Below are positions 2,328-20,188 of a stretch of 26,875 nt of DNA, in pieces. The translations under genes and the position numbers were made by a program. The notes below the pieces were generated by a model that saw only the letters and a program-made list of their open reading frames with translations, did no database searches and was not told the origin of the DNA. The DNA is from Corallococcus sp. 4LFB (GTDB taxonomy: Bacteria; Myxococcota; Myxococcia; Myxococcales; Myxococcaceae), in the NCBI RefSeq assembly GCF_046520365.1, contig NZ_JBKGHJ010000051.1, positions 1 through 26,875 on the forward strand. The letters run 5' to 3'. Positions within the stretch are counted from its first letter, which is position 1. Each line of letters starts with the position of its first letter.

Positions 2328-3221
2328 CTACTTCGGCTCGCCCATGACCTCCATCGTGTGCTTGAGCCGCTCCAGGCCCAGCCGCACCAGGGCGCCGCGC
2401 AGGTCGGGCTGGCCCAGGAAGGCCTTCTTGAACACGTCGCGCTCCAGCTTGAGGAGCGTGCAGGGCGTCACGGTGCGTACGGTGGCGGTGGCCAGCCGGC
2501 TGCGCAAGAGGGAGATCTCCCCGAACAGGGCGCCTTCCTCCAGCGTGGGGTAGGGGGACTGGCGGCCGTCGCCGTGCGTGTGGAAGACCTCGCACTGGCC
2601 CCGGATGAGGACGTAGAGCGCGTCGCCCGGCTGGCCCCGGGTGAGCAGCGTCTCTCCGGCGGGGACGGTGCAGGGGACGAAGGCGTCACCCAGCTCGTGC
2701 TGCACCTCCGGGGGCAGGGCGGCGATGAGCGGGTTGCTGCGCAGCGCGTCCGCGAGCAGGCGCTCCCGGGCGGTGACCTGCATCTGCTCGCCCTTGACGC
2801 CGTAGTCCTTGCCCAGCTCCCGGACGCCCGCCTGGGTGAGCTCCAGCAGCACGGCGTCCTCCACCGTCACGATGGTGGCGGTGCGCTGCGTGCCGGTGAG
2901 CAGCGCCAGCTCGCCGAAGAACTCGCCGGCGCCCAGGCGGCCGACCTCCGTGTTGGCGCCGTTGTCGCCGCCGCGCAGCACCGCGACGCGGCCCTCCAGC
3001 ACGACGAACATCGAATGGCCCGGGTCGCCCTCGCGCACGACGATCTGTCCCGCGGGCAGGTAGCGCGTGCACACAGGAGGCGGCGTGGCGGCGCCTTCCG
3101 CATCCGTCGGAGCGCCTGCCGCCGTGGGCGCGGCGGAGGTCGCGGGCGTCTGTCCGGCGGAGGCGGCCGGGGCGGACGGGTGGGCGGACAGCAGGGCCTG
3201 CAGGCGCGCGAACAGGGACAT
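2328..3221 (-). CDS. Protein with two tandem cyclic-nucleotide-binding (CAP effector) domains. A TTG alternative start is at 3230.
   Basis: Two repeats of the cNMP-binding signature appear (…GEFFGELALLTG.QRTATIVTVEDAVLLEL… and …GALFGEISLLRSRLATATVRTVTPCTLLKLER…). The N-terminus is Ala/Pro-rich and low-complexity. There is no DNA-binding HTH. Confidence 0.7.
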   Translation of the reverse strand: MSLFARLQALLSAHPSAPAASAGQTPATSAAPTAAGAPTDAEGAATPPPVCTRYLPAGQIVVREGDPGHSMFVVLEGRVAVLRGGDNGANTEVGRLGAGEFFGELALLTGTQRTATIVTVEDAVLLELTQAGVRELGKDYGVKGEQMQVTARERLLADALRSNPLIAALPPEVQHELGDAFVPCTVPAGETLLTRGQPGDALYVLIRGQCEVFHTHGDGRQSPYPTLEEGALFGEISLLRSRLATATVRTVTPCTLLKLERDVFKKAFLGQPDLRGALVRLGLERLKHTMEVMGEPK

Positions 3222-3433
3222 GGTGCCCAAATGCTACCGGGGCGCCCGGCCGGAACTGTGAAGCGCTTCACAGGCGGTGCGGAGGTGGCCTGAAAGACAG
3301 CCAGGCAGGCGCAAGAGCATCATTGAACAGGGATTGGCCGCTGCTGTCACGTCTGGGTTTTGCCCTCCTGACGCACGGCGACGGGCGCCGGGGATGGCGT
3401 GGGCGGACCGGGACGCCCTACAGTCCCCGGCCC

Positions 3434-4429
3434 ATGGGAGACACGCTGGACGTCGTGGTGGACCTGGGAGACGTGGGGGAGACGCCCGCGGATGCCGTGC
3501 TGCTGAAGTACGCGCAGGGCTTCCACGGGGCGGACGGCGCGGTGTCGCGCCGGCTGGAGGCGGCGGGCGTGGCCATGGACGCCTTCGACCTGCTCCCCGG
3601 GGACCACCGCTTCATCGACACGCGCAGGAGCCTGGGGGCTCCGCTGGTGCTCTTCCTGGGCACGGTGCGCCTGCGGCAGTTCGGCTACCACGAGATCCGC
3701 CAGTTCTCCGTGCGCGCGCTCCAGCTCCTGGAGCCCCGGCACGAGGTGCGTCACCTCGCGTGCACGGTGCACGGCCCCAACTACGGGTTGGACGAGGACG
3801 AGGCCGTGCTGGCCCTGGTGGGCGGCTTCGTGGACGCGTTCCAGCGCGGCAGCGGGCCGCGCGACCTCACGCGCATCACGGTGGTGGAGCTGAACCCCAA
3901 GCGCGTGGAGCGGCTGCGCAAGGCCATCGCGCTTGGGCTGGGGCTCACGCCGGGCGTGGAGCCGCTGATGGGGGCCACGGGCTTCCGCGTGCGGCGGACC
4001 TCCCGCTTCGTCCAGGCGCCGCCCATGGCGAGCGCGGGCGCGAACTCGAACGAGAAGCCCCACGCCTTCGTGGCGATGCCCTTCGCCCCGGAGCTGGAGG
4101 ACACCTACCACTACGGCATCCTGAACCCCGTGAAGGCAGCCGGCCTGCTGTGCGAGCGCGTGGACCAGGCCGTCTTCGATGGTCCCATCATCCAGCGCAT
4201 CCGGGACCGCATCGACACGGCGAAGGTCGTCATCGCGGACCTGTCATTGGCGAACCCCAATGTCTATCTGGAGGTGGGCTATGCCTGGGGACGCGGCAAG
4301 CCCACCCTGATGCTGGTGCGCGACGTGAAGGAGCTGCGCTTCGATGTCTCCAGCTACCGGTGCCTCGTCTACCGGAACATCCGGCACCTGGAGGAGCTGC
4401 TGACGCAGGAGCTGCAGCGCATCGCCTGA
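3434..4429 (+). CDS. Two-domain protein. The N-terminal half is Macro-like (ADP-ribose-binding) and the C-terminal half is nucleoside 2-deoxyribosyltransferase/DNPH1(Rcl)-like. An alternative TTG start at 3323 would add 37 aa.
   Basis: The N-terminus reads VVVDLGDVGETPADAVLLKYAQGFHGADGAVSRRLEAAG, which follows the macro-domain pattern GDIT…DAIVNAAN…GGGV.GAI..AAG. Further on, …TVHGPNYGLDEDEAVLALV… resembles the macro distal motif. The C-terminus reads AFVAMPF…AKVVIADLSLANPNVYLEVGYAWGRGKPTLMLV. This closely parallels DNPH1/Rcl (YFCGSIRGG… ADVVVAEVTQPSLGVGYELGRAVAFNKRILCLF). Confidence 0.55.
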   Translation: MGDTLDVVVDLGDVGETPADAVLLKYAQGFHGADGAVSRRLEAAGVAMDAFDLLPGDHRFIDTRRSLGAPLVLFLGTVRLRQFGYHEIRQFSVRALQLLEPRHEVRHLACTVHGPNYGLDEDEAVLALVGGFVDAFQRGSGPRDLTRITVVELNPKRVERLRKAIALGLGLTPGVEPLMGATGFRVRRTSRFVQAPPMASAGANSNEKPHAFVAMPFAPELEDTYHYGILNPVKAAGLLCERVDQAVFDGPIIQRIRDRIDTAKVVIADLSLANPNVYLEVGYAWGRGKPTLMLVRDVKELRFDVSSYRCLVYRNIRHLEELLTQELQRIA

Positions 4430-4438
4430 AGCCTGGGC

Positions 4439-5533
4439 TCACCAGCCGCGCGCGGCGACCTCCCACGTCGCCACGTGCGTGTCGCCGCGCACGACATGCA
4501 GCCGGGGATGCTGCGGGACGGAAACACAGACATGGTTGGGGACCACGCGCACCCGCTCGCCGATGCGGGGGCGCCACGCCGTGCCGGACACGTCCAGCAG
4601 GCCGTGCTCTTCCGACAGGTTCTTCACCACGACCTCCGGCCGGTCCAGCAGGGCGCCATAGCCCGGCGCGAGCCCTTCCTCCTTCACCAGCGTCTTGGAG
4701 CCCGCGTCGATGACCACCTGGCCGGGCACGGCCGTGCTCACCACCGTGGCCAGGACCGAATAGGCACACTCCGTCCAATCACAGGCGCCGATGACGGCCG
4801 CGTTGCGGTCGTTGAGCACGTTGAGGCCGGGACGGATCTCCGTGAGGCCCTTCACGGTATGGGATTGCCAGAGCGTCGGGGTGGAGCCGCCGCTGACCAC
4901 CTCCGGCGGCAGGCCCGCGTGGCTCAAGGCGCCCACGAACGTCGCCAGCGCTTCGGACTGGGCCTGCATCGCGGCGGACAGCTCCGCCTGGGGAACGCGG
5001 ATGTGGCCCGCGTAGAACGTCACCCCGCGAAACGCCACACCGGCCGTGGACGCCGCCGCGCGCGCCAGCGCCACCGTCTCCTCCGGTGTGCGCAGCCCCA
5101 CGCGGCGCATGCCCAGGTCCACCTCCACGAGCACGCCCACGGTGCGCCCCGCGTCCCGGGCCGCTCGCGCCAGCCCCTCCAGCACCTCATGCGAGTCGAG
5201 CGCCACGGTGAGCCGCACGCGCGAGGGCAGGGCCATCAACCGCGCCAGCTTGTGCGCGCCCACCGGCGGGTACGCGAGCAGCACGTCATCGGACACGGCG
5301 GCCATGACCTCGGCTTCCAGGACGGTGGCCACCGTGACGCCGGAGGCTCCCGCCGCGACCTGCATCGCGCCCAGCTCCGCCGTCTTGTGCGTCTTCGTAT
5401 GGGGCCGCCAGCGCAGGCCGTGCTCGCGGGCGTAGGTCGCGACGCGCTGGAGGTTCCGCTCGACGCGGTCCAGGTCCACGATGGCGGCCGGCGTGTCGAG
5501 CGTATCGAGGAAGGTCGAGGACATGCGGCGCAT
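4439..5533 (-). CDS. PLP-dependent enzyme with an alanine racemase N-terminal domain (D-serine dehydratase-like / D-threonine aldolase, DSD1 family).
   Basis: 364 aa. It has the PHTKTHK PLP-lysine motif, a TIM-barrel-like N-terminus and a C-terminal β-domain (…RVVPNHVCVSV…), typical of the DSD1/YGL196W family. Confidence 0.7.
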   Translation of the reverse strand: MRRMSSTFLDTLDTPAAIVDLDRVERNLQRVATYAREHGLRWRPHTKTHKTAELGAMQVAAGASGVTVATVLEAEVMAAVSDDVLLAYPPVGAHKLARLMALPSRVRLTVALDSHEVLEGLARAARDAGRTVGVLVEVDLGMRRVGLRTPEETVALARAAASTAGVAFRGVTFYAGHIRVPQAELSAAMQAQSEALATFVGALSHAGLPPEVVSGGSTPTLWQSHTVKGLTEIRPGLNVLNDRNAAVIGACDWTECAYSVLATVVSTAVPGQVVIDAGSKTLVKEEGLAPGYGALLDRPEVVVKNLSEEHGLLDVSGTAWRPRIGERVRVVPNHVCVSVPQHPRLHVVRGDTHVATWEVAARGW

Positions 5534-10671: not shown

Positions 10672-11347
10672 GCAGGCGAGGGAAGAGGCGGCGTTCGCCC
10701 GGGGCGATGTCGGCGTGGACGGCGTCGCCACCGAGGAGGAGAAGGACGAAGCCGAGGTCGAAAAGGGCAAGGCGCGCGAACAGCTGCTGCGCGGCCGCGC
10801 CTACCTGGGCCGCGAGTTCATGACGTGGCTGCTGTGGCGCTCGGAGTCGGGCGACCCGCTGGTGGAGTTCGACGGCGCGGGCGTCGTGGTCCTCTTCCTG
10901 GGCAAGGTGGTGCTGCGCGGCGTGGCGGGCGACGTCACGGAGATGAGCGCCAAGGGCACGCTGGCGCCGTATTCGGAGAACGTGCGCCACTCGCTGGACC
11001 GGGGCCTGCTGGTGTCCCAGGCGCGGCTGCGCATCTCCCACGGCGAGCGCGAATACGAAGTCACCCTCGATTCCGAGTTCCTGGACATCCGCGCCGCCAA
11101 GCTGCCCGCGCTCATGACCGAGGAAGAGGATGATCAGCTCTCCGAGCGGCTGGAGCTGACCGAGCAGCTCTCCGGGCTCGTGGACGCGCTGGTGCAGGAC
11201 TTCCTGCCCATGCGCGCCGGCCGCGCCTGGAGCAAGCAGGTGGTGCCCGCGATGAAGGCGTGGATGAAGGGCGAGGAGAAGGGCAGCGACGTGCTCTCCA
11301 AGGCCGCCCGCGCCCGGGGCCGCGACGCCCGGGCCGCCCGGGGCTGA
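10658..11347 (+). CDS. RdgC-like recombination-associated protein, C-terminal half. It overlaps the previous ORF by 14 nt in another frame.
   Basis: An acidic N-terminal stretch is followed by FMTWLLWRSESGDPLVEFDGAGVVVLFLGKVVLRG… and …ARLRISHGEREYEVTLDSEFLDIRAAKLPALMTEEEDDQLSERLELTEQLSGLVDALVQDFL. This parallels the RdgC C-terminal region (…LTEWVRSG… …[60 protein letters not shown]). Confidence 0.45.
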   Translation: MARREQAREEAAFARGDVGVDGVATEEEKDEAEVEKGKAREQLLRGRAYLGREFMTWLLWRSESGDPLVEFDGAGVVVLFLGKVVLRGVAGDVTEMSAKGTLAPYSENVRHSLDRGLLVSQARLRISHGEREYEVTLDSEFLDIRAAKLPALMTEEEDDQLSERLELTEQLSGLVDALVQDFLPMRAGRAWSKQVVPAMKAWMKGEEKGSDVLSKAARARGRDARAARG

Positions 11348-11348
11348 A

Positions 11349-12110
11349 TCACGGTCCAGGCGCTGTACGTCCGCCAATCACCGGGAAGCGCTCGTAGACC
11401 CGCTTGAGCGCTTCCAGGTGGGCGGGATTGTCGTAATCGAGCGGTGCCTCCGTGAGCCGCACGATCCACCCGCCTGACGGCGTGCGCCGCGCCCGCGTGA
11501 GCAGTTCGGCATCGCGAGCCGGCTCCGGGAACCCGATGACCTCCGCGGCAGCCGCGGACCAGTAATTCAGCCACCCGAGGAAAGAGGGAGTCTCCGCCCT
11601 GGGGCTCTTCTCCGGAAGGTTGAGCATGGGAAGCCCCCGGGGTGAACGCTCGGGGTCGTCTGGCGAGCGGCGGAACTGCTGCGCGACCTCTGCGCCGTAG
11701 CCATACGGCGACGCGTGACCCCAGAACGAACGTGCCCCCTCCGCCACGGCCTCGAGCAGCGCCGCCGCTGCCGCGACCGCGGGCCCATCCAGTGGCAGTT
11801 TTGCGTGCACTTCAAGTTGGGGCTGTCCGCCTGGACTGGAGCGCCCTGAGCTTTCAATTCCCCAGACCGTCACGGGGTGACGTTCGTCCCCGTTGCATAC
11901 GACCGGGAATCCACCGTCCTCGATTCTTTCCACGAGCCAGGTGTCCCGCTGTGGCAACGCGATGGGGCGCCCACTTTCGCCAACTTCCCACTCCAGGCGT
12001 AAGCCAGGGAGCGCATTCTCCATCCCATGGATGATATTGAGCGTGCGGCTGTCTTTGCCCGCGAGGGCAGGGGCATAGGTGATGAGTGTCAGTTTTTTTT
12101 GCGTGCTCAT
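11349..12110 (-). CDS. Putative cognate immunity protein for the upstream lipoprotein nuclease toxin. Its ATG overlaps the toxin stop as ATGA.
   Basis: 253 aa with no signal peptide. Its start codon is 4-nt-coupled (ATGA) to the toxin stop. Its 5' end lies in the same low-GC island as the toxin C-terminal domain. The family is not recognised with certainty (possibly Imm52/DUF5953-like). Confidence 0.5.
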   Translation of the reverse strand: MSTQKKLTLITYAPALAGKDSRTLNIIHGMENALPGLRLEWEVGESGRPIALPQRDTWLVERIEDGGFPVVCNGDERHPVTVWGIESSGRSSPGGQPQLEVHAKLPLDGPAVAAAAALLEAVAEGARSFWGHASPYGYGAEVAQQFRRSPDDPERSPRGLPMLNLPEKSPRAETPSFLGWLNYWSAAAAEVIGFPEPARDAELLTRARRTPSGGWIVRLTEAPLDYDNPAHLEALKRVYERFPVIGGRTAPGP

Positions 12111-13036
12111 CGTTTACATTCTGTGACGACGACATCGAGATTGGGAAGTTCTTCGAGCAGCGCGGTTTTATGCGCCTGGGTGCTCACTCCCACGACGAAG
12201 CCATATCCGCATGCCTCTGCGACGTCTCGCTCCTGCTTCAATTGTTTCACTTCCTTCCTGATCTCCTGTTCCTGGACAAAATCATTGTACGAATCAAATT
12301 GATGCGTCTTGATCTCCCACAGTTTGCGGACACCGATTTGCAGTGCATCGAAGCGCACGCCACCCACGAGCACGTCCATCCCGGGATAACGGTTTGGTGG
12401 GAACTTGTCGGCGCACTCGTTATGCGAGTCATCCTCGCCCGCGTGTGGCACGGGAACAGGCTCGCAACTGGCACGGCCCGTCCGGCCCACAAGGACAGGG
12501 GGCACCGGGGGCTGCCTGCCCTGGCCTGCTGGCTCCGGTTCCAGCCTGGGCTTCGGCTTCGCTACAGTATCCCGGGACGCGACCCTCGCCCCTCGTGAGG
12601 TCCCTGCTTCCTCCGGGTAGAGGTGGCGCAGTTCATACGCATCCAGTTCCTCCTTGATGGCGACGGCGACCACCACCGCTCCCAGCACGATGACGGCTCC
12701 CACGGCGATCTCAGGCGCCGCCAGCACGCAGAACCCGAGCCCCACGGTCGCGGCATCGACGGAGGCGACGGTGCATCTTCCCGTGGTGTCGTGGAACTCG
12801 ACCCGGTCGTGGTCGAGTGCTCGATAGCACCGCTCCACCAGCGCGGGCCAAGGCTGGGACGCTTCGCGGACAACGCACCGTCCATCATCCCTCCAGGGGA
12901 GCGCCGCCGCTCGTCGCAGGTTTGCATTCCTCGTATTGCGGACCGTTGACGCTCTGGGACGCGGCTCCGTCGTGGCGCAGGCCGAGAAAACGAGCAGAAG
13001 CCAAAGCGCGGTGCATGTCCGGAGACTCATGGTCAT
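12107..13036 (-). CDS. Polymorphic-toxin-like lipoprotein with a C-terminal PD-(D/E)xK nuclease domain (SitA-like). An alternative ATG is at 13030; the ORF track extends it to 13150.
   Basis: The type II signal peptide is MTMSLRTCTALWLLLVFSAC|ATTE (lipobox Cys, no Asp at +2). A central hydrophobic segment follows. The C-terminal ~110 aa carry GMDVLVGGVRFDALQIGVRKLWEIKTHQFD, a D…(D/E)xK nuclease signature. This domain is encoded by DNA that is clearly lower in GC than the rest of the window. Confidence 0.55.
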   Translation of the reverse strand: MTMSLRTCTALWLLLVFSACATTEPRPRASTVRNTRNANLRRAAALPWRDDGRCVVREASQPWPALVERCYRALDHDRVEFHDTTGRCTVASVDAATVGLGFCVLAAPEIAVGAVIVLGAVVVAVAIKEELDAYELRHLYPEEAGTSRGARVASRDTVAKPKPRLEPEPAGQGRQPPVPPVLVGRTGRASCEPVPVPHAGEDDSHNECADKFPPNRYPGMDVLVGGVRFDALQIGVRKLWEIKTHQFDSYNDFVQEQEIRKEVKQLKQERDVAEACGYGFVVGVSTQAHKTALLEELPNLDVVVTECKR

Positions 13037-13039
13037 CTC

Positions 13040-13083
13040 TTCACAACAAGCAAAAGCCTCCAGGGCCTTGGACCCGGAGGCTT
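13040..13083 (-). terminator. Rho-independent terminator between the Cys-rich peptide gene and the toxin gene.
   Basis: The minus-strand RNA reads GCCUCCGGGUCCAAGGCCCUGGAGGC, a 9–10 bp GC stem with one bulge. It is followed directly by UUUUGCUUGUUGU, and then by the toxin RBS and ATG. Confidence 0.5.
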
Positions 13084-13094
13084 CTGGATGCGCT

Positions 13095-13316
13095 CTACGG
13101 GTTGATGCAACGCCAGACGCCGCAGGAGCCCTCGCCGTCGCCACAGTCATACTGGCTGTAGCACGGCTTGCAGCTGGCCGAGCAGATCATCCGGACCGCC
13201 TGGGTGTCGCTCGTCTCCGACGCCGGGCCGGGAACCATGGCCAGGGCCGAGCCCGCCATGGCGCCGATGATCAGGGCAAGGTCGGGAACGGACCGCTTCA
13301 GTCGCGACGGCTTCAT
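13095..13316 (-). CDS. Small secreted cysteine-rich peptide. It is a 73-aa precursor with a signal peptide and a six-Cys C-terminal core.
   Basis: MKPSRLKRSVPDLALIIGAMAGSALA|MVPGPASETSDTQAVRMICSASCKPCYSQYDCGDGEGSCGVWRCINP. A GGAGGAAGC ribosome-binding site lies 4 nt before the ATG at 13316. The signal peptide has an AxA cleavage site. Six Cys fall within the last 26 residues. Confidence 0.45.
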   Translation of the reverse strand: MKPSRLKRSVPDLALIIGAMAGSALAMVPGPASETSDTQAVRMICSASCKPCYSQYDCGDGEGSCGVWRCINP

Positions 13317-13553
13317 GCTTCCTCCGGGGGGAATGGGGCCGGAGCATCCGGGCCCACACAGCGAGGGCATTCGACCAGACGCGCAGAGGCGATCCAAGTT
13401 CGACGCTGCTCCAGTCTGGCGCGCTGTCCGAACCGCAATGGAGCAAGCGGCCGCGCCAGTCCGGCGCGGTGCCTGTCTGTCCCAGGGCGGAAGGCAGAGG
13501 CACGGGACTCGCAATGACTCGCGGCCAATCCCTCCCGCCCGAGCAGGTGTCCC

Positions 13554-15832
13554 GTGCCGTCCGCCCCCAGCACCGAAGCCATCCAGCGCATCTCCCTGAA
13601 GAACCGCGAGTACGCCTACATCGAGGACGCCAACCGCGGCGTCGTGCTGATGGAGGTGGGCCCGCGCGTGCTGACGCTGGAGGCGCACCTGACGCTCGTG
13701 GCGAAGGAGCGGATGGTGGAGGTGGGCGCCGGCAGCTGGTGCGTGGTGCGCAACCCCGTGGTGCGCGTGGACGGGCAGGTGGCGCTGGACGACTTCGGCC
13801 AGGCCCGCGTCGCGGTGGGCGACCGCGAGGTCCGCGTGGGCCCGAAGGTGTTCCCGCTGTACCCCGGCGAGGAGCTGGAGGGCGACATCGTCCCGGAGTA
13901 CGTCCTGGGCGTGTCGGAGGCGCTGCGGCTGCGCGCGCTCACCGCCTTCATGGACACCAGCGCCCCGGACGCGCCCGCCGCCGCGAGGCCGGTGACGAGT
14001 GGCTGGTGCGCGGCCCCGGCCGCTACGTGCCAGGCGAGGCCGTCACCGTCGTGTCGCTGGAGAAGGCTCGCGTCCTCAAGGAGACCGAGTACTGCGTCAT
14101 CCTCAATCCCGTGGACCGCGCCACCGGCCGCGTCCAGGAGGGCCGCCGCAAGGTCGTCTCCGGGCCGGACGTCTTCTTCCTGGAGCCCGGCGAAGCGCTG
14201 GAAGGGGACGTGCGCCGCAAGCACGTCCTGTCGGAGCTCCAGGGGCTGAAGCTCCAGGCGCTGGATGACCTCTCCGAGAACGAGGGCGGCGAGCCCCGCG
14301 CGCGCAAGGCCGGTGACACGTGGATCGTCCGCGGCCCGCGCACCTACGTGCCCAGCGAGAAGGTCCTCATCCACCGGGAGATCTCCGCGCTGTCGCTGGG
14401 GCAGGGGGAGGGCCTCTACGTGCGCGATTTGCGCTCGGGCAAGGTGTCGCTCGTCCAGGGGCCGTGCCAGTTCATGCCGGAGGCGCACCAGGAGCTGCAC
14501 GAGAAGCGCCTGTCCCCGGACGCGGAGGCGCTGCTGGGCCTTGCTTCGCCGCTGCCGGCTTCGGCGGACGCGAAGGACGTCCGCGCGCCGCGCCCCGCGA
14601 CCCAGGCGGAGAAGGGGGACCGCACGCGCGCCATCGTGCTGCGCATCGAGGACAACACGGCGGTCCTCATCAACGACTTCGAGACCAACCACGCGCGCGT
14701 GGAGTTCGGCCCCGCGAAGGTGATGCTGCGTCCGTACGAGGACGTCACCGTGTTGGACCTGTCCGGCAGCACGCCCAAGCGCCCGCGCCAGCTCAAGGTG
14801 TTGATGCTGCGGCTGGGGCCGGACTTCGCCACGGACCTCTTCGAGGTGGCCACGCGCGACCACGCGCGGCTGCGCATCAAGCTCTCCTACAAGTGGCAGT
14901 TCGACGTGCAGGGCGACCCGGAGAAGGACAAGGCCATCTTCCGGGTGAACGACTTCATCGGGTACGTGTGTGAGAACCTCGCGTCGCGCATCCGCCAGGT
15001 CGCCGCGGAGAACGAGTTCGAGACCTTCCACAAGAACGCCAGCGTGCTCATCCGCCGCGCCATCTTCGGCATGGACGACGCGGGCCGCGCGCGCAAGGAC
15101 CGCCTCTTCTCCGAGAACCAGCTGCGCATCATCGACATCGACATCAAGGACATCGCCCCCGTCGACGAGAAGACGGCCCTGAAGCTGCGCGAGGCCATCG
15201 ACACCAACATCCAGATCCAACTGGACGCCTCACGCCAGGAGGCCCAGGCCGCCGCGGAGCTCAAGCGCATCCGCAGCGAGGAGGAGAAGCAGCTCGCGGA
15301 CATCGCCAGCCACCGCAAGTCGGAAGCCGAACGCCAATCCCTCATCGAACTGCAGAATCGCAATCACCAGCTGGAGACGCTCAGCCGCGCCAAGGTGGAG
15401 GCGGAGGCGCAGCTGGAGCGGGCCCGCGTGGAGAGCGAGGAGGCCCTGGCCCGCGCCGAGTCCGACGCCCGCGCCTCCCGCATCCGCGCCGAGGCGGAGG
15501 CCGAGCGTGAACGGCTCACCACCCAGGTGACGCTGGAGCGCCAGCAGCGCCTCAACGACCTGGAGGTGGAGCGCCAGTCCCGGCTCGCGGAGGTGGAGGC
15601 CTCGCAGTTCCGCCAGCGCGTGGAGTCCCTGGGCGGCGGGGAGAACTTCGTGAAGGCCGTGGCCGCGCAGGCCCAGGCCGCAGTCGTCGGAGGCCTGGAC
15701 AAGGTCGTCTTCCTGCCCAGCGGCTCCAACCTCAACCTCTTCGACGCCATGCAGGGGCTCCTGGGCCCCGGAGGCCAGCCGCGCCTGTCCGCCCACCACA
15801 CCCCGACACCGCCCGGAGACACCTCCGCCTGA
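13554..15832 (+). CDS. Major vault protein (MVP) homologue of about 760 aa. It is interrupted by a single-base frameshift near 13975–13990: 13554–13986 reads in one frame and 13987–15832 in the frame of the ORF 13469..15832.
   Basis: Direct residue-level similarity to vertebrate MVP runs along the whole length. MVP repeat domains: ISLKNREYAYIEDANRGVVLMEVGP…, then …VFPLYPGEELEGDIVPEYVL… (compare human FPLYPGEVLEKDITPLQVV), then AGDEWLVRGPGRYVP (human AGDEWLFEGPGTYIP). Further matches include EYCVILNPV…FFLEPGEALEG…, …AGDTWIVRGPRTYVPSEKV…, and GEGLYVRDLRSGKVSLVQGP (human EGIYVQDVKTGKVRAV). The shoulder domain reads VLMLRLGPDFATDLFEVATRDHARLRIKLSYKWQFDV (human [36 protein letters not shown]). A long coiled-coil cap helix follows. 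The C-terminal cap-ring motif is GSNLNLFDAMQGLLGPGGQP (human [22 protein letters not shown]). Confidence 0.75.
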
Positions 15833-19369: not shown

Positions 19370-19459
19370 GGGGCGCATCCTCGCCCAGTCCTCCACCGCG
19401 TGCATCAGGAAGCCACCCGGGACGCGGGGGCCGCGAGGGCCCCCGGCCCGGATTGTCGG

Positions 19460-20083
19460 CTACTGCGTGATGCAGGTGATGGTCTCGAGCATCGTCACGT
19501 TGGCGTTACCCGTGGTGTTCCAGGGGCCCACGCCATTGGTGCCAACGATGTACGTGTACGCGGAGCCCCGGATGGCGGTGGTGAAGCTGCGAGCGCCGAG
19601 GTGGCCCAGGTCCTGGCAGAAGCGGCGGGCGGTATCGGAGGCAGTGCTGAAGTTCCCGGTGGGGTAGTTCGGCTGGATGGTGCCCACCTGGTAGCCATTC
19701 TTCGTCGGCGTCGTGTACGTGACGTCCGAATCGGAGGTGATGCAGGTGATGGTTTCAAGCATCGTCACGTTCGCGTTGCCGGTGGTGTTCCACGGCCCCA
19801 CGCCACTCGCTCCGACGATGTATGTGTACGCGGAGCCCCGGATGGCGGTGGTGAAGCTCTGCGCGCCGCCGTAGCCCTGGTCCTGACAGAAGCGGCGGGC
19901 GGTATCGGCGGCAGTGCTGAAGTTCCCGGTGGGGTAGTTCGGCTGGATGGTGCCAATCTGATAGCCATTGACCTTGGGCGTCACATAGGTCTGGTACGTG
20001 TCAGCGCTGGCTGACGACGCGAAGCCCACGACGAAGAGCACGGACACGAAGAGGGAGGGGAGACCGCTGCCGCGACGAAGCAT
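19460..20083 (-). CDS. Secreted protein made of two tandem ~88-aa repeats. Function unknown.
   Basis: The signal peptide is MLRRGSGLPSLFVSVLFVVGFASSASA. It is followed by two near-identical modules (Y.TY.TP.KNGYQ.GTIQPNYPTGNFSTA.DTARRFCQD.G..GA.SFTTAIRGSAYTYIVG..GVGPWNTTGNANVTMLETITCIT). A GAGGA ribosome-binding site lies 4 nt before the ATG at 20083. The ORF extension to 21541 overlaps the aminopeptidase gene and is rejected. Confidence 0.5.
   Translation of the reverse strand: MLRRGSGLPSLFVSVLFVVGFASSASADTYQTYVTPKVNGYQIGTIQPNYPTGNFSTAADTARRFCQDQGYGGAQSFTTAIRGSAYTYIVGASGVGPWNTTGNANVTMLETITCITSDSDVTYTTPTKNGYQVGTIQPNYPTGNFSTASDTARRFCQDLGHLGARSFTTAIRGSAYTYIVGTNGVGPWNTTGNANVTMLETITCITQ
19466..19993. 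repeat. Tandem direct DNA repeat, 2 × ~264 bp at about 85–90% identity, inside the secreted repeat-protein gene.
   Basis: By eye, 19466–19729 aligns with 19730–19993. For example, ggtgatgcaggtgatggtctcgagcatcgtcacgttggcgtt aligns with ggtgatgcaggtgatggtttcaagcatcgtcacgttcgcgtt. Confidence 0.6.
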
Positions 20084-20188
20084 GTATTCCTCGGTTTGTA
20101 GCTGAAACGGGGGGGGCGGGACCGTAGCGGCTCCCCTGGCTGAATGCATCCCGCGTGAGACGTAGGCGCCTGGTCTAGGCTGCGGCCC

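Follow-up and report, generated by a model that had tools for sequence, protein, structure and literature searches.

What does a pronounced dip in GC content within a gene of a 70%-GC genome say about the history of that gene? The question is raised by a 26,875-nucleotide stretch of Corallococcus sp. 4LFB (contig NZ_JBKGHJ010000051.1, positions 1 to 26,875; hereafter the window), in which a low-GC patch covers the junction of what appear to be two genes, namely the 3′ end of one for a lipoprotein nuclease toxin and the 5′ end of the one for its immunity protein. A preliminary description, made from the sequence alone, had read this patch as the signature of a horizontally exchanged toxin C-terminal (CT)/immunity module, grafted onto a resident N-terminal delivery domain by C-terminal displacement. 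The analysis presented here shows that the gene pair is an ordinary polymorphic toxin/immunity cassette of a large family without literature. The dip is, in all likelihood, a stable property of this family, intrinsic to the nuclease domain and to the codon usage of the cassette, and not the trace of a recent import or a recombination scar. Exchange of the toxin CT together with part of the immunity gene is supported by synonymous divergence and distance correlations, but not by GC.

Position and size of the low-GC interval

The cassette consists of two genes with a combined length of 1.7 kb, both located on the minus strand, to which all coding features described below belong. The toxin gene (12107-13030, 307 residues, start codon ATG at 13030) was defined from the listing of open reading frames (ORFs) and their translations, and its stop codon shares an ATGA overlap (12107-12110) with the start of the immunity gene (11349-12110, 253 residues). 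The GC content of the interval 12020-12450 is 0.543, compared with 0.705 for the whole window. The lowest 300-bp window (12014-12313) has a GC content of 0.507, corresponding to z = −6.3 versus the remaining window, while 300-bp windows outside the region have a mean of 0.708, with a standard deviation (sd) of 0.032 and a lowest value of 0.62. The lowest 200-bp window lies at 12104-12303 (0.495), and a two-boundary likelihood fit places the core of the dip at 12074-12353 (GC 0.49). The dip is thus confirmed, and with it the sharp island at 12020-12450 of the preliminary description, which had named a GC profile without a significant dip relative to the variance of the window as evidence to the contrary; the strings quoted there are found at 12088-12146 and 12278-12305. 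The assignment of the island to the toxin C-terminal domain and the 5′ end of the immunity gene is borne out by the ORF and Pfam coordinates, according to which the dip spans approximately the C-terminal three quarters of the DUF6310 domain of the toxin and ∼30 codons at the 5′ end of the immunity gene. An annotation-free scan of GC by codon phase delineates a much wider anomalous tract than 400 bp, extending from ∼11100 to ∼13200.

Composition of the dip

The dip can be resolved into two layers. The first is formed by the cassette as a whole, which uses non-host codons. The GC content at third codon positions (GC3) is 0.67 and 0.74 over the full lengths of the toxin and immunity genes, respectively, compared with 0.92–0.98 in the host-type genes of the window. 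When the eleven host-like genes of the window are taken as codon-usage reference, the GC deficit of the interval (0.542 vs 0.713, i.e. −0.171) separates into an amino-acid share of −0.064 and a codon-choice share of −0.107. In the toxin, the codon effect amounts to −0.090 for the N-domain, −0.097 for the linker and −0.112 for the CT, and a codon deficit of −0.08 to −0.11 extends across nearly the whole cassette, including the rest of the immunity gene; the hydrophobic segment of the toxin, with a codon effect of −0.016, is the sole part near host level. The codon usage of the island does not differ from that of the rest of the same gene. Since the codon deficit is cassette-wide, the interval stands out within the cassette mainly by its amino-acid composition. 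This is the second layer: amino acids with A/T-rich codons are abundant in the nuclease domain, above all in its hypervariable K/E/Q-rich helix, and at the start of the immunity protein. Over toxin residues ∼220–290 the GC content at second positions (GC2) is 0.13–0.40 while GC3 is ∼0.6, and in immunity codons 1–30 the values for first (GC1) and second positions are 0.47 and 0.43, respectively.

The same partition is observed in the family. The family GC3 is 0.73 in the toxin N-part as well as in the immunity gene, and 0.61–0.74 in 15-codon blocks across the CT; GC at first and second positions together (GC12) is 0.35 at toxin residues 245–259, with family GC3 values of 0.61–0.87 throughout. 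Family-wide, GC3 in the block from the CT to the N-terminal half of the immunity gene is ∼0.68–0.69, versus 0.73–0.77 in the other cassette parts. Fast evolution was considered as a cause of the low GC3, met with weak support (rho −0.11 for the toxin and −0.31 for the immunity gene) and was set aside.

The low GC2 of the CT and the low family GC12 at residues 245–259, next to a nearly flat GC3, could suggest that the dip is a pure by-product of amino-acid composition, without evolutionary or modular meaning. However, about 60% of the interval deficit relative to host genes stems from codon choice, and the low-GC domain lies inside a block with an independent history, as described below. The codon-choice share and the block structure already contradict this explanation, which is given very little probability.

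It is also quite improbable that the A/T-rich gene junction was selected for regulation or translation initiation, through weak mRNA structure or an internal promoter of the immunity gene. The first 12 immunity codons, which overlap the toxin stop, are indeed A-rich (ATGAGCACGCAAAAAAAACTG...), and the low GC1 and GC2 values of codons 1–30 would agree with such selection, but it would account for at most ∼60–90 bp of a dip of ∼300–400 bp. The GC minimum falls within the hypervariable helix, 150–200 bp upstream of the immunity start, and no promoter-like site is present within 11100-13600. A scan against Rfam gave only two sub-threshold chance matches.

Conservation of the dip in homologous loci

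In total 80 loci encoding relatives were retrieved, from Corallococcus, Myxococcus, Pyxidicoccus, Citreicoccus, Archangium, Cystobacter, Hyalangium and Vitiosangium. When aligned on the toxin stop codon, all 78 homologous loci compared, from about eight genera, share both the dip and its location: the last 300 nucleotides of the toxin gene have mean GC contents of 0.60, 0.52 and 0.56 in successive 100-nucleotide bins (sd 0.03–0.05, n = 78), with flanks at ∼0.68. The phase GC of the cassette is 0.710±0.021, compared with a flank median of 0.857, and is lower than that of the flanks in 74 of 77 loci. Among the 78 loci the anomaly is specific neither to this locus nor to a lineage. Moreover, copies with saturated synonymous sites (synonymous divergence, dS, >1) keep the cassette composition, with a GC3 of ∼0.71±0.02, and the composition is therefore regarded as a family equilibrium and not as an unameliorated import. 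Two findings that would contradict a family property, homologs lacking the dip and a host-like GC3 in the toxin N-half, were looked for; no dip-less homolog was found and the N-half GC3 is not host-like. A point that weighs against this reading is the persistence of a GC3 of ∼0.7 in genomes with a GC3 above 0.9.

The alternative explanation, that a foreign CT/immunity module of lower GC was recently grafted at this locus onto a resident N-domain of host composition and left the dip as its scar, can draw on three observations. The dip is sharp and its right edge (∼12450) coincides with a family-wide recombination junction; the block spanning the CT and the immunity N-half is slightly lower in GC3 than the other cassette parts; and dS in this block is 3–6 times that of the cassette ends in comparisons with two syntenic loci (see below). 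Nevertheless, the N-terminal domain does not have the host-like composition of a resident scaffold, having a GC3 of ∼0.7 and a codon effect close to that of the CT (−0.09 vs −0.11). The local dip is located mainly at codon positions 1 and 2, and the immunity gene past codon ∼30 is not low in GC, though part of the exchanged block. The search for donors that the preliminary description had proposed returned named matches from high-GC Myxococcaceae or Archangiaceae only and no low-GC donor, and no counterpart of the toxin was detected by tblastn in 50,697 phage and 72,556 plasmid records. Together with the identical dip in all 78 homologs and the equilibrium composition of the saturated copies, these results largely refute a recent graft, which we consider highly unlikely; as a signature of horizontal exchange the dip did not hold.

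Two records labelled Comamonas sp. (KCTC 72670, JC664), L021 (BNCN01000015.1) and P0385, carry typical family members. The 'Comamonas' family member resides on a 209-kb contig with a flank GC of 0.71, and these records probably represent mislabelled or contaminated myxobacterial assemblies.

Exchange of a CT/immunity block

Pairwise distances were analyzed for 69 loci from representative genomes (2346 pairs), a sample of the family. Within the toxin, the distances of segments 19–92, 93–126 and 127–190 are mutually correlated (rho 0.62–0.70), and those of toxin residues 191–306 are correlated with those of immunity residues 1–120 (rho 0.54–0.76). In contrast, between the N block and the CT/immunity block rho is 0.00–0.25, adjacent segments included. 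In a 20-codon scan the change from one block to the other falls between toxin residues ∼184 and ∼203, where DUF6310 begins: residues 172–191 show a rho of 0.61 with the N block and −0.05 with the immunity block, compared with 0.21 and 0.50, respectively, for residues 196–215. In the window this change corresponds to a probable recombination junction at ∼12420-12480, which answers the proposal of the preliminary description to align related loci for a breakpoint. On the immunity side, coupling to the CT has a rho of 0.48–0.69 over residues 1–120 and 0.12–0.36 past residue 140; it fades gradually and is weak past residue ∼160.

Synonymous divergence reveals the same block. The flanks of the cassette are 94% identical to those of two syntenic loci, L001 of C. 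interemptor and L005 of C. carmarthensis. Compared with both, dS is 0.7–1.6 in toxin residues ∼200–307 and immunity residues 1–∼120 and 0.23–0.4 at both ends of the cassette, with dN/dS below 1. Within the immunity gene, the comparison with C. interemptor gives a dS of 0.65–1.37 for residues 1–120 and of 0.23–0.47 for the C-terminal half. Against the closest relative, L041 (95% identical), the dS pattern is inverted. Discordant pairs are found in both directions: L046 and L066 have a distance of 0.016 in the centre and 0.209 in the N-half, while L003 and L012 have distances of 0.06 in the N-half and 0.35 in the centre. These observations support that toxin residues ∼191–306 and immunity residues 1–∼120 constitute one block, with a history uncoupled from that of the toxin N-half. 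The block would act as an exchangeable specificity unit, reshuffled against the N-half by homologous recombination at the boundary between linker and DUF6310. Immunity residues 1–120 (11751-12110), which co-evolve with the toxin CT according to the distance correlations and dS, may form the toxin-binding half of the protein.

The preliminary interpretation is therefore partly supported. A toxin-CT/immunity module is exchangeable, as indicated by dS, the distance correlations and the presence of the domain on other scaffolds, but GC is not evidence for it. Likewise, the right edge proposed for the module (∼12450) agrees with the recombination junction, whereas the left edge does not, the block running ∼360–480 bp into the immunity gene.

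Modularity of DUF6310

An exhaustive search with DUF6310 alone yielded 201 representatives, in which the domain always occupies the extreme C-terminus of proteins of 130–1130 residues. In a scan of 20 long DUF6310 proteins, the N-terminal regions were found to contain eCIS_core (9 proteins, one of which also has LysM), Transglut_core (4), CBM_2 (1) or nothing else recognizable (6), so that the same C-terminal toxin domain occurs on several unrelated scaffolds. The domain is accompanied by its cognate immunity gene directly downstream: an ORF of ∼254 codons, equal in size to the DUF5953 gene of the window, follows the toxin gene in 76 of the 78 loci, with overlap of the toxin stop in 72 of these 76, tblastn searches with the downstream ORFs of relatives match the immunity gene of the window, and a DUF5953 gene also follows the gene of the eCIS_core-DUF6310 protein P0153, for which the neighbourhood is on record. 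These data support a modular role of DUF6310 as toxin end, which occurs on N-terminal scaffolds unrelated to each other and keeps its DUF5953 partner there.

The lipoprotein family itself behaves differently. The N-terminal 176 residues of the toxin alone retrieve 717 proteins, and the best 120 of these all carry DUF6310, with lengths of ∼305 residues and a few annotated as shorter (225–279 residues). As the N-region never occurs with another CT among these best 120 matches, the exchange is to be regarded as allele shuffling within one family, and not as the C-terminal displacement by a non-homologous CT that had been proposed. The arrangement is reminiscent of CdiA-CT/CdiI and other polymorphic toxins, in which a C-terminal toxin and a linked immunity gene are exchanged between delivery scaffolds. 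Unlike those systems, however, the lipoprotein family shows alleles of one CT family only and contains no large filamentous or Rhs scaffold, and of the immunity gene the exchanged block takes only the part for the N-terminal ∼120–160 residues.

Three other scaffolds, P0200, P0212 and P0161 (a transglutaminase, a CBM2 and an unrecognized one), have a hydrophobic, transmembrane-like stretch and a Pro-rich linker before DUF6310, as does the toxin of the window; hydrophobic segment, linker and nuclease may thus work together.

Fold and putative activity of toxin and immunity protein

Structure predictions support the identification of the gene pair as a toxin/immunity pair with a nuclease fold in the C-terminal domain. 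In the AlphaFold2 (AF2) model of the toxin, residues ∼190–307 form an alpha/beta nuclease-type core with predicted local distance difference test (pLDDT) scores of 88–97. The DUF6310 domain assigned by Pfam (12116-12484) is predicted to adopt a PD-(D/E)xK fold, contains an acidic...(D/E)xK motif and has its nearest structural neighbours in Tox-REase-5. The putative catalytic motif, D219...D228...E239-I-K241 (12308-12376), was derived from the alignment and the AF2 strands. D219, D228 and K241 are invariant and E239 is kept in at least 90% of 44 sequences, and these residues are located on or beside the predicted strands 218–222, 229–231 and 236–241. The partner protein, covered over its whole length by DUF5953 in Pfam, has a predicted Imm52 fold, and some DUF5953 members are already labelled Imm52 in UniRef.

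The predicted folds resemble those of TseT-TsiT (PA3907-PA3908) from Pseudomonas aeruginosa, a type VI secretion system (T6SS) nuclease effector with a Tox-REase-5 domain and its Imm52 immunity protein. On the basis of these folds and of the work on TseT-type effectors (bioRxiv 10.1101/835710), the toxin CT would be expected to have DNase activity, and the immunity protein would neutralize the nuclease by binding. Several results weigh against placing the pair firmly in these families. The structure-based identity to TseT-TsiT is 8–15%, and at the curated Pfam thresholds neither family is recovered: none of 44 toxins matches Tox-REase-5 (PF15648) up to an E-value of 10, and Imm52 (PF15579) matches 5 of 45 immunity proteins with E-values of 0.056–0.12, at ∼12 bits compared with a cut-off of 25 bits. 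Profile searches of PDB sequences recovered neither TseT nor TsiT, and single-sequence and profile searches for solved structures gave chance-level matches only, so that the Tox-REase-5/Imm52 assignment rests on the predicted structures. A search of NCBIfam returned nothing relevant, and a literature search found no paper mentioning DUF6310 or DUF5953. The cassette also differs from TseT in its apparent route: TseT uses a PAAR/T6SS pathway (bioRxiv 10.1101/835710), whereas the cassette toxin starts with a lipobox, followed by a small domain and a hydrophobic segment.

In C. exercitus SDU142 (L063) the syntenic toxin gene has suffered a frameshifting deletion of ∼193 bp (at L063 4585-4640) which removes the catalytic core, corresponding to window positions 12228-12420 according to alignment and translation. 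The immunity gene of this strain is intact and 89% identical to that of the window, and its retention beside an inactivated toxin agrees, indirectly, with a toxic CT that is neutralized by its partner.

Domain organization and possible delivery

From N- to C-terminus the toxin comprises a predicted lipobox signal peptide, a small Cys-containing domain, a hydrophobic segment, a Pro-rich linker and the DUF6310 nuclease domain. The toxin ORF can be extended to 13150, but translation of this longer form is improbable, as over 900 homologs with a length of ∼305 residues align from the Met encoded at 13030, which is position M41 of the longer frame. The predicted lipoprotein signal peptide (12977-13030), identified by pattern match and alignment, ends in the lipobox FSAC with Cys18 (FSAC/ATTEPR in the window protein). 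A lipobox (LSAC, VSAC or FSAC) was recognized, by pattern match only, in 65 of 72 family members; Cys18 is invariant in the alignment, and the residue at +2 is Ala in 61. The small conserved N-terminal domain (residues 19–92; 12755-12976), defined by the alignment and by AF2 helices with pLDDT scores of 76–86, contains three further invariant Cys residues (C52, C68 and C86 in the 307-residue numbering). A Pfam scan found no family over toxin residues 19–182.

The glycine-rich hydrophobic segment which follows (residues 93–126; 12653-12754) is of transmembrane grade, as judged from hydropathy and alignment. Its peak 19-residue Kyte-Doolittle hydropathy is 2.7 in the window protein (family mean 2.77), and with 71% mean identity it is the best-conserved piece of the toxin N-half. 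The invariant residues are G97, G99, P106, E107, G111 and G117, including a conserved Pro-Glu pair in the middle of the segment. The charged, Pro-rich linker (residues 127–182; 12485-12652), in contrast, has the lowest mean identity of all segments (0.48), with AF2 pLDDT scores below 50. Within the DUF6310 domain, the hypervariable K/E/Q-rich helix (residues ∼245–274; 12209-12298), recognized from column entropies of 1.4–1.5 bits and an AF2 helix at 250–273, is the lowest-GC stretch, and the 60-bp GC content is 0.42 at 12250-12339. The ATGA overlap between the two genes suggests translational coupling.

This organization raises the possibility that the toxin is delivered to neighbouring cells as a lipoprotein, in a manner similar to the SitA toxins of myxobacteria, which are transferred by TraAB-dependent outer-membrane exchange. 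By analogy this is a plausible route, to which we give somewhat less than an even chance. The hydrophobic segment would then help the CT to enter across the inner membrane of the recipient. Like the SitA/SitI systems (families SitA1/2 to SitA7), the cassettes occur in Myxococcaceae and Archangiaceae, and they encode what is by pattern match a type II signal peptide with a lipobox and no Lys at +2, in line with the sorting rule for outer-membrane lipoproteins (as cited in PMC5562445). A C-terminal nuclease, predicted in our case, is followed by an immunity gene in the same operon, and genomes hold several diverged copies, some of them on prophage-like DNA, similar to the many and often mobile loci of SitA. 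The toxin domain PF15648 is carried by the active SitA3-Mf1 (PMC8546572), and the cassette family is non-modular, as are the SitA4, 6 and 7 families (PMC8546572). Unlike SitA, with escort domains of ∼375 residues (PMC8546572), the mature N-region (residues 19–182) has a length of only ∼165 residues and includes the transmembrane-grade segment. In an outer-membrane lipoprotein, a segment of this type after the lipobox would be uncommon, and it could instead place the nuclease in the cytoplasm of the producer; both points argue against SitA-like export.

The cassette family could correspond to a published SitA family, e.g. SitA7, which is described only as a predicted DNase, or to a further family. 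More doubtful is the specific proposal that it represents a large lipoprotein toxin family (>900 members) outside the characterized SitA families, in which a short N-module replaces the escort domain and the hydrophobic segment carries the nuclease across the recipient inner membrane. The N-module would in that case combine a lipid anchor with a small disulfide-type domain and a conserved, glycine-rich hydrophobic hairpin centred on Pro-Glu, and the exchangeable specificity unit would comprise the toxin CT and only the first ∼120 residues of the immunity protein.

A different function, as an intracellular toxin-antitoxin (TA) or abortive-infection module, appears unlikely. Here, once the signal peptide is cleaved off, the hydrophobic segment would span the inner membrane of the producer, and a cytoplasmic nuclease would be held by the immunity protein until a trigger releases it. 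Every family member has a transmembrane-grade segment between signal peptide and nuclease, and an N-out/C-in topology would indeed put the CT in the cytoplasm. The lack of a signal peptide in the immunity protein, the tight gene overlap, the argument that Tox-REase-5/Imm52 pairs derive from TA systems (bioRxiv 10.1101/835710), and a weak match of the immunity protein to the PADLOC candidate PDC-M17B (E-value 8e-4) point in the same direction. On the other hand, the toxin has no match in PADLOC, DUF6310 also occurs in fusion with export- or injection-related scaffolds (eCIS_core, secreted CBM2), and the lipobox is conserved, with a residue at +2 of the outer-membrane type (rule cited in PMC5562445). 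The diverged multi-copy loci, the hypervariable toxin and immunity-N regions and the occurrence of orphan immunity genes fit inter-strain conflict better, and export as a lipoprotein remains our preferred, if tentative, proposal.

Genomic context of the cassette

The cassette lies among common chromosomal genes, which encode an S13 peptidase, an RdgC-like protein, a major-vault-protein-like protein, a biopterin hydroxylase, a short-chain dehydrogenase/reductase (SDR) and an M1 peptidase; no mobility gene is present among them. No second cassette or remnant was found elsewhere in the window in tblastn searches with 78 toxin and 75 immunity queries. The cassette behaves as a unit. The C. carmarthensis locus shares only the upstream flank with the window, and homology ends at the limits of the two genes. 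In C. aberystwythensis (L025) a DUF6310/DUF5953 cassette of 1795 bp (3173-4968) replaces window positions 19421-20166, within flanks that are 91–95% identical. This stretch has the second-lowest GC of the window (0.65) and looks like a replacement hotspot. In the window it holds, on the minus strand, a gene for a small secreted protein with an internal tandem duplication of ∼270 bp and a weak match to a YecR-like lipoprotein.

A search of 2.9 million viral contigs gave one match, an IMG/VR contig (L081), in which the cassette (3088-4982) is located directly after genes for a phage portal, a prohead protease and a major capsid protein (74-2921) and is followed by two Ser/Thr kinase genes. In this respect the contig resembles the prophage-like Mx-alpha units, in which sitBAI cassettes are found. 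Tandem copies also occur, with two DUF6310 genes within 9 kb in L035 (4001-4915 and 6577-7200) and in L046 (2-802 and 4001-4960). Among the retrieved loci, the number per genome is at least 3–5, e.g. five in C. carmarthensis CA043D. Published SitA totals are 25–80 per genome, summed over all families.

Directly upstream of the toxin gene lies a small ORF (13095-13316, minus strand) with the ribosome-binding site GGAGGAAGC, which encodes a protein of 73 residues that carries a signal peptide and, at its C-terminus, a peptide with six Cys residues (…CSASCKPCYSQYDCGDGEGSCGVWRCINP). The ORF ends at a terminator-like hairpin (13051-13086), the only one in 11100-13600. It is part of an indel of ∼356 bp (13052-13407) and is present in the loci of C. 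exercitus SDU142 (90% amino-acid identity) and C. interemptor (79%), but absent from L041 and C. carmarthensis; the protein has no match in Pfam or PADLOC. Divergently from the cassette, a gene on the plus strand (13469-15832) encodes a protein of 787 residues with an MVP_shoulder domain (E-value 4e-45) and Vault repeats, and thus a bacterial homolog of vault proteins.

Implications

The locus calls for caution in the scanning of genomes, as a sharp local drop in GC within one gene of a 70%-GC genome mimicked a horizontal-transfer scar and turned out to be a conserved domain property, superimposed on the atypical codon usage of a whole cassette. For DUF6310 and DUF5953 the predicted structures provide a testable function, as a Tox-REase-5-like DNase and an Imm52-like immunity protein. 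The recombination joint and the co-evolving sub-region of the immunity protein could guide work on specificity swaps. Finally, as a very abundant, multi-copy cassette family, the pair may add to the kin-discrimination toxin repertoire of the myxobacteria.

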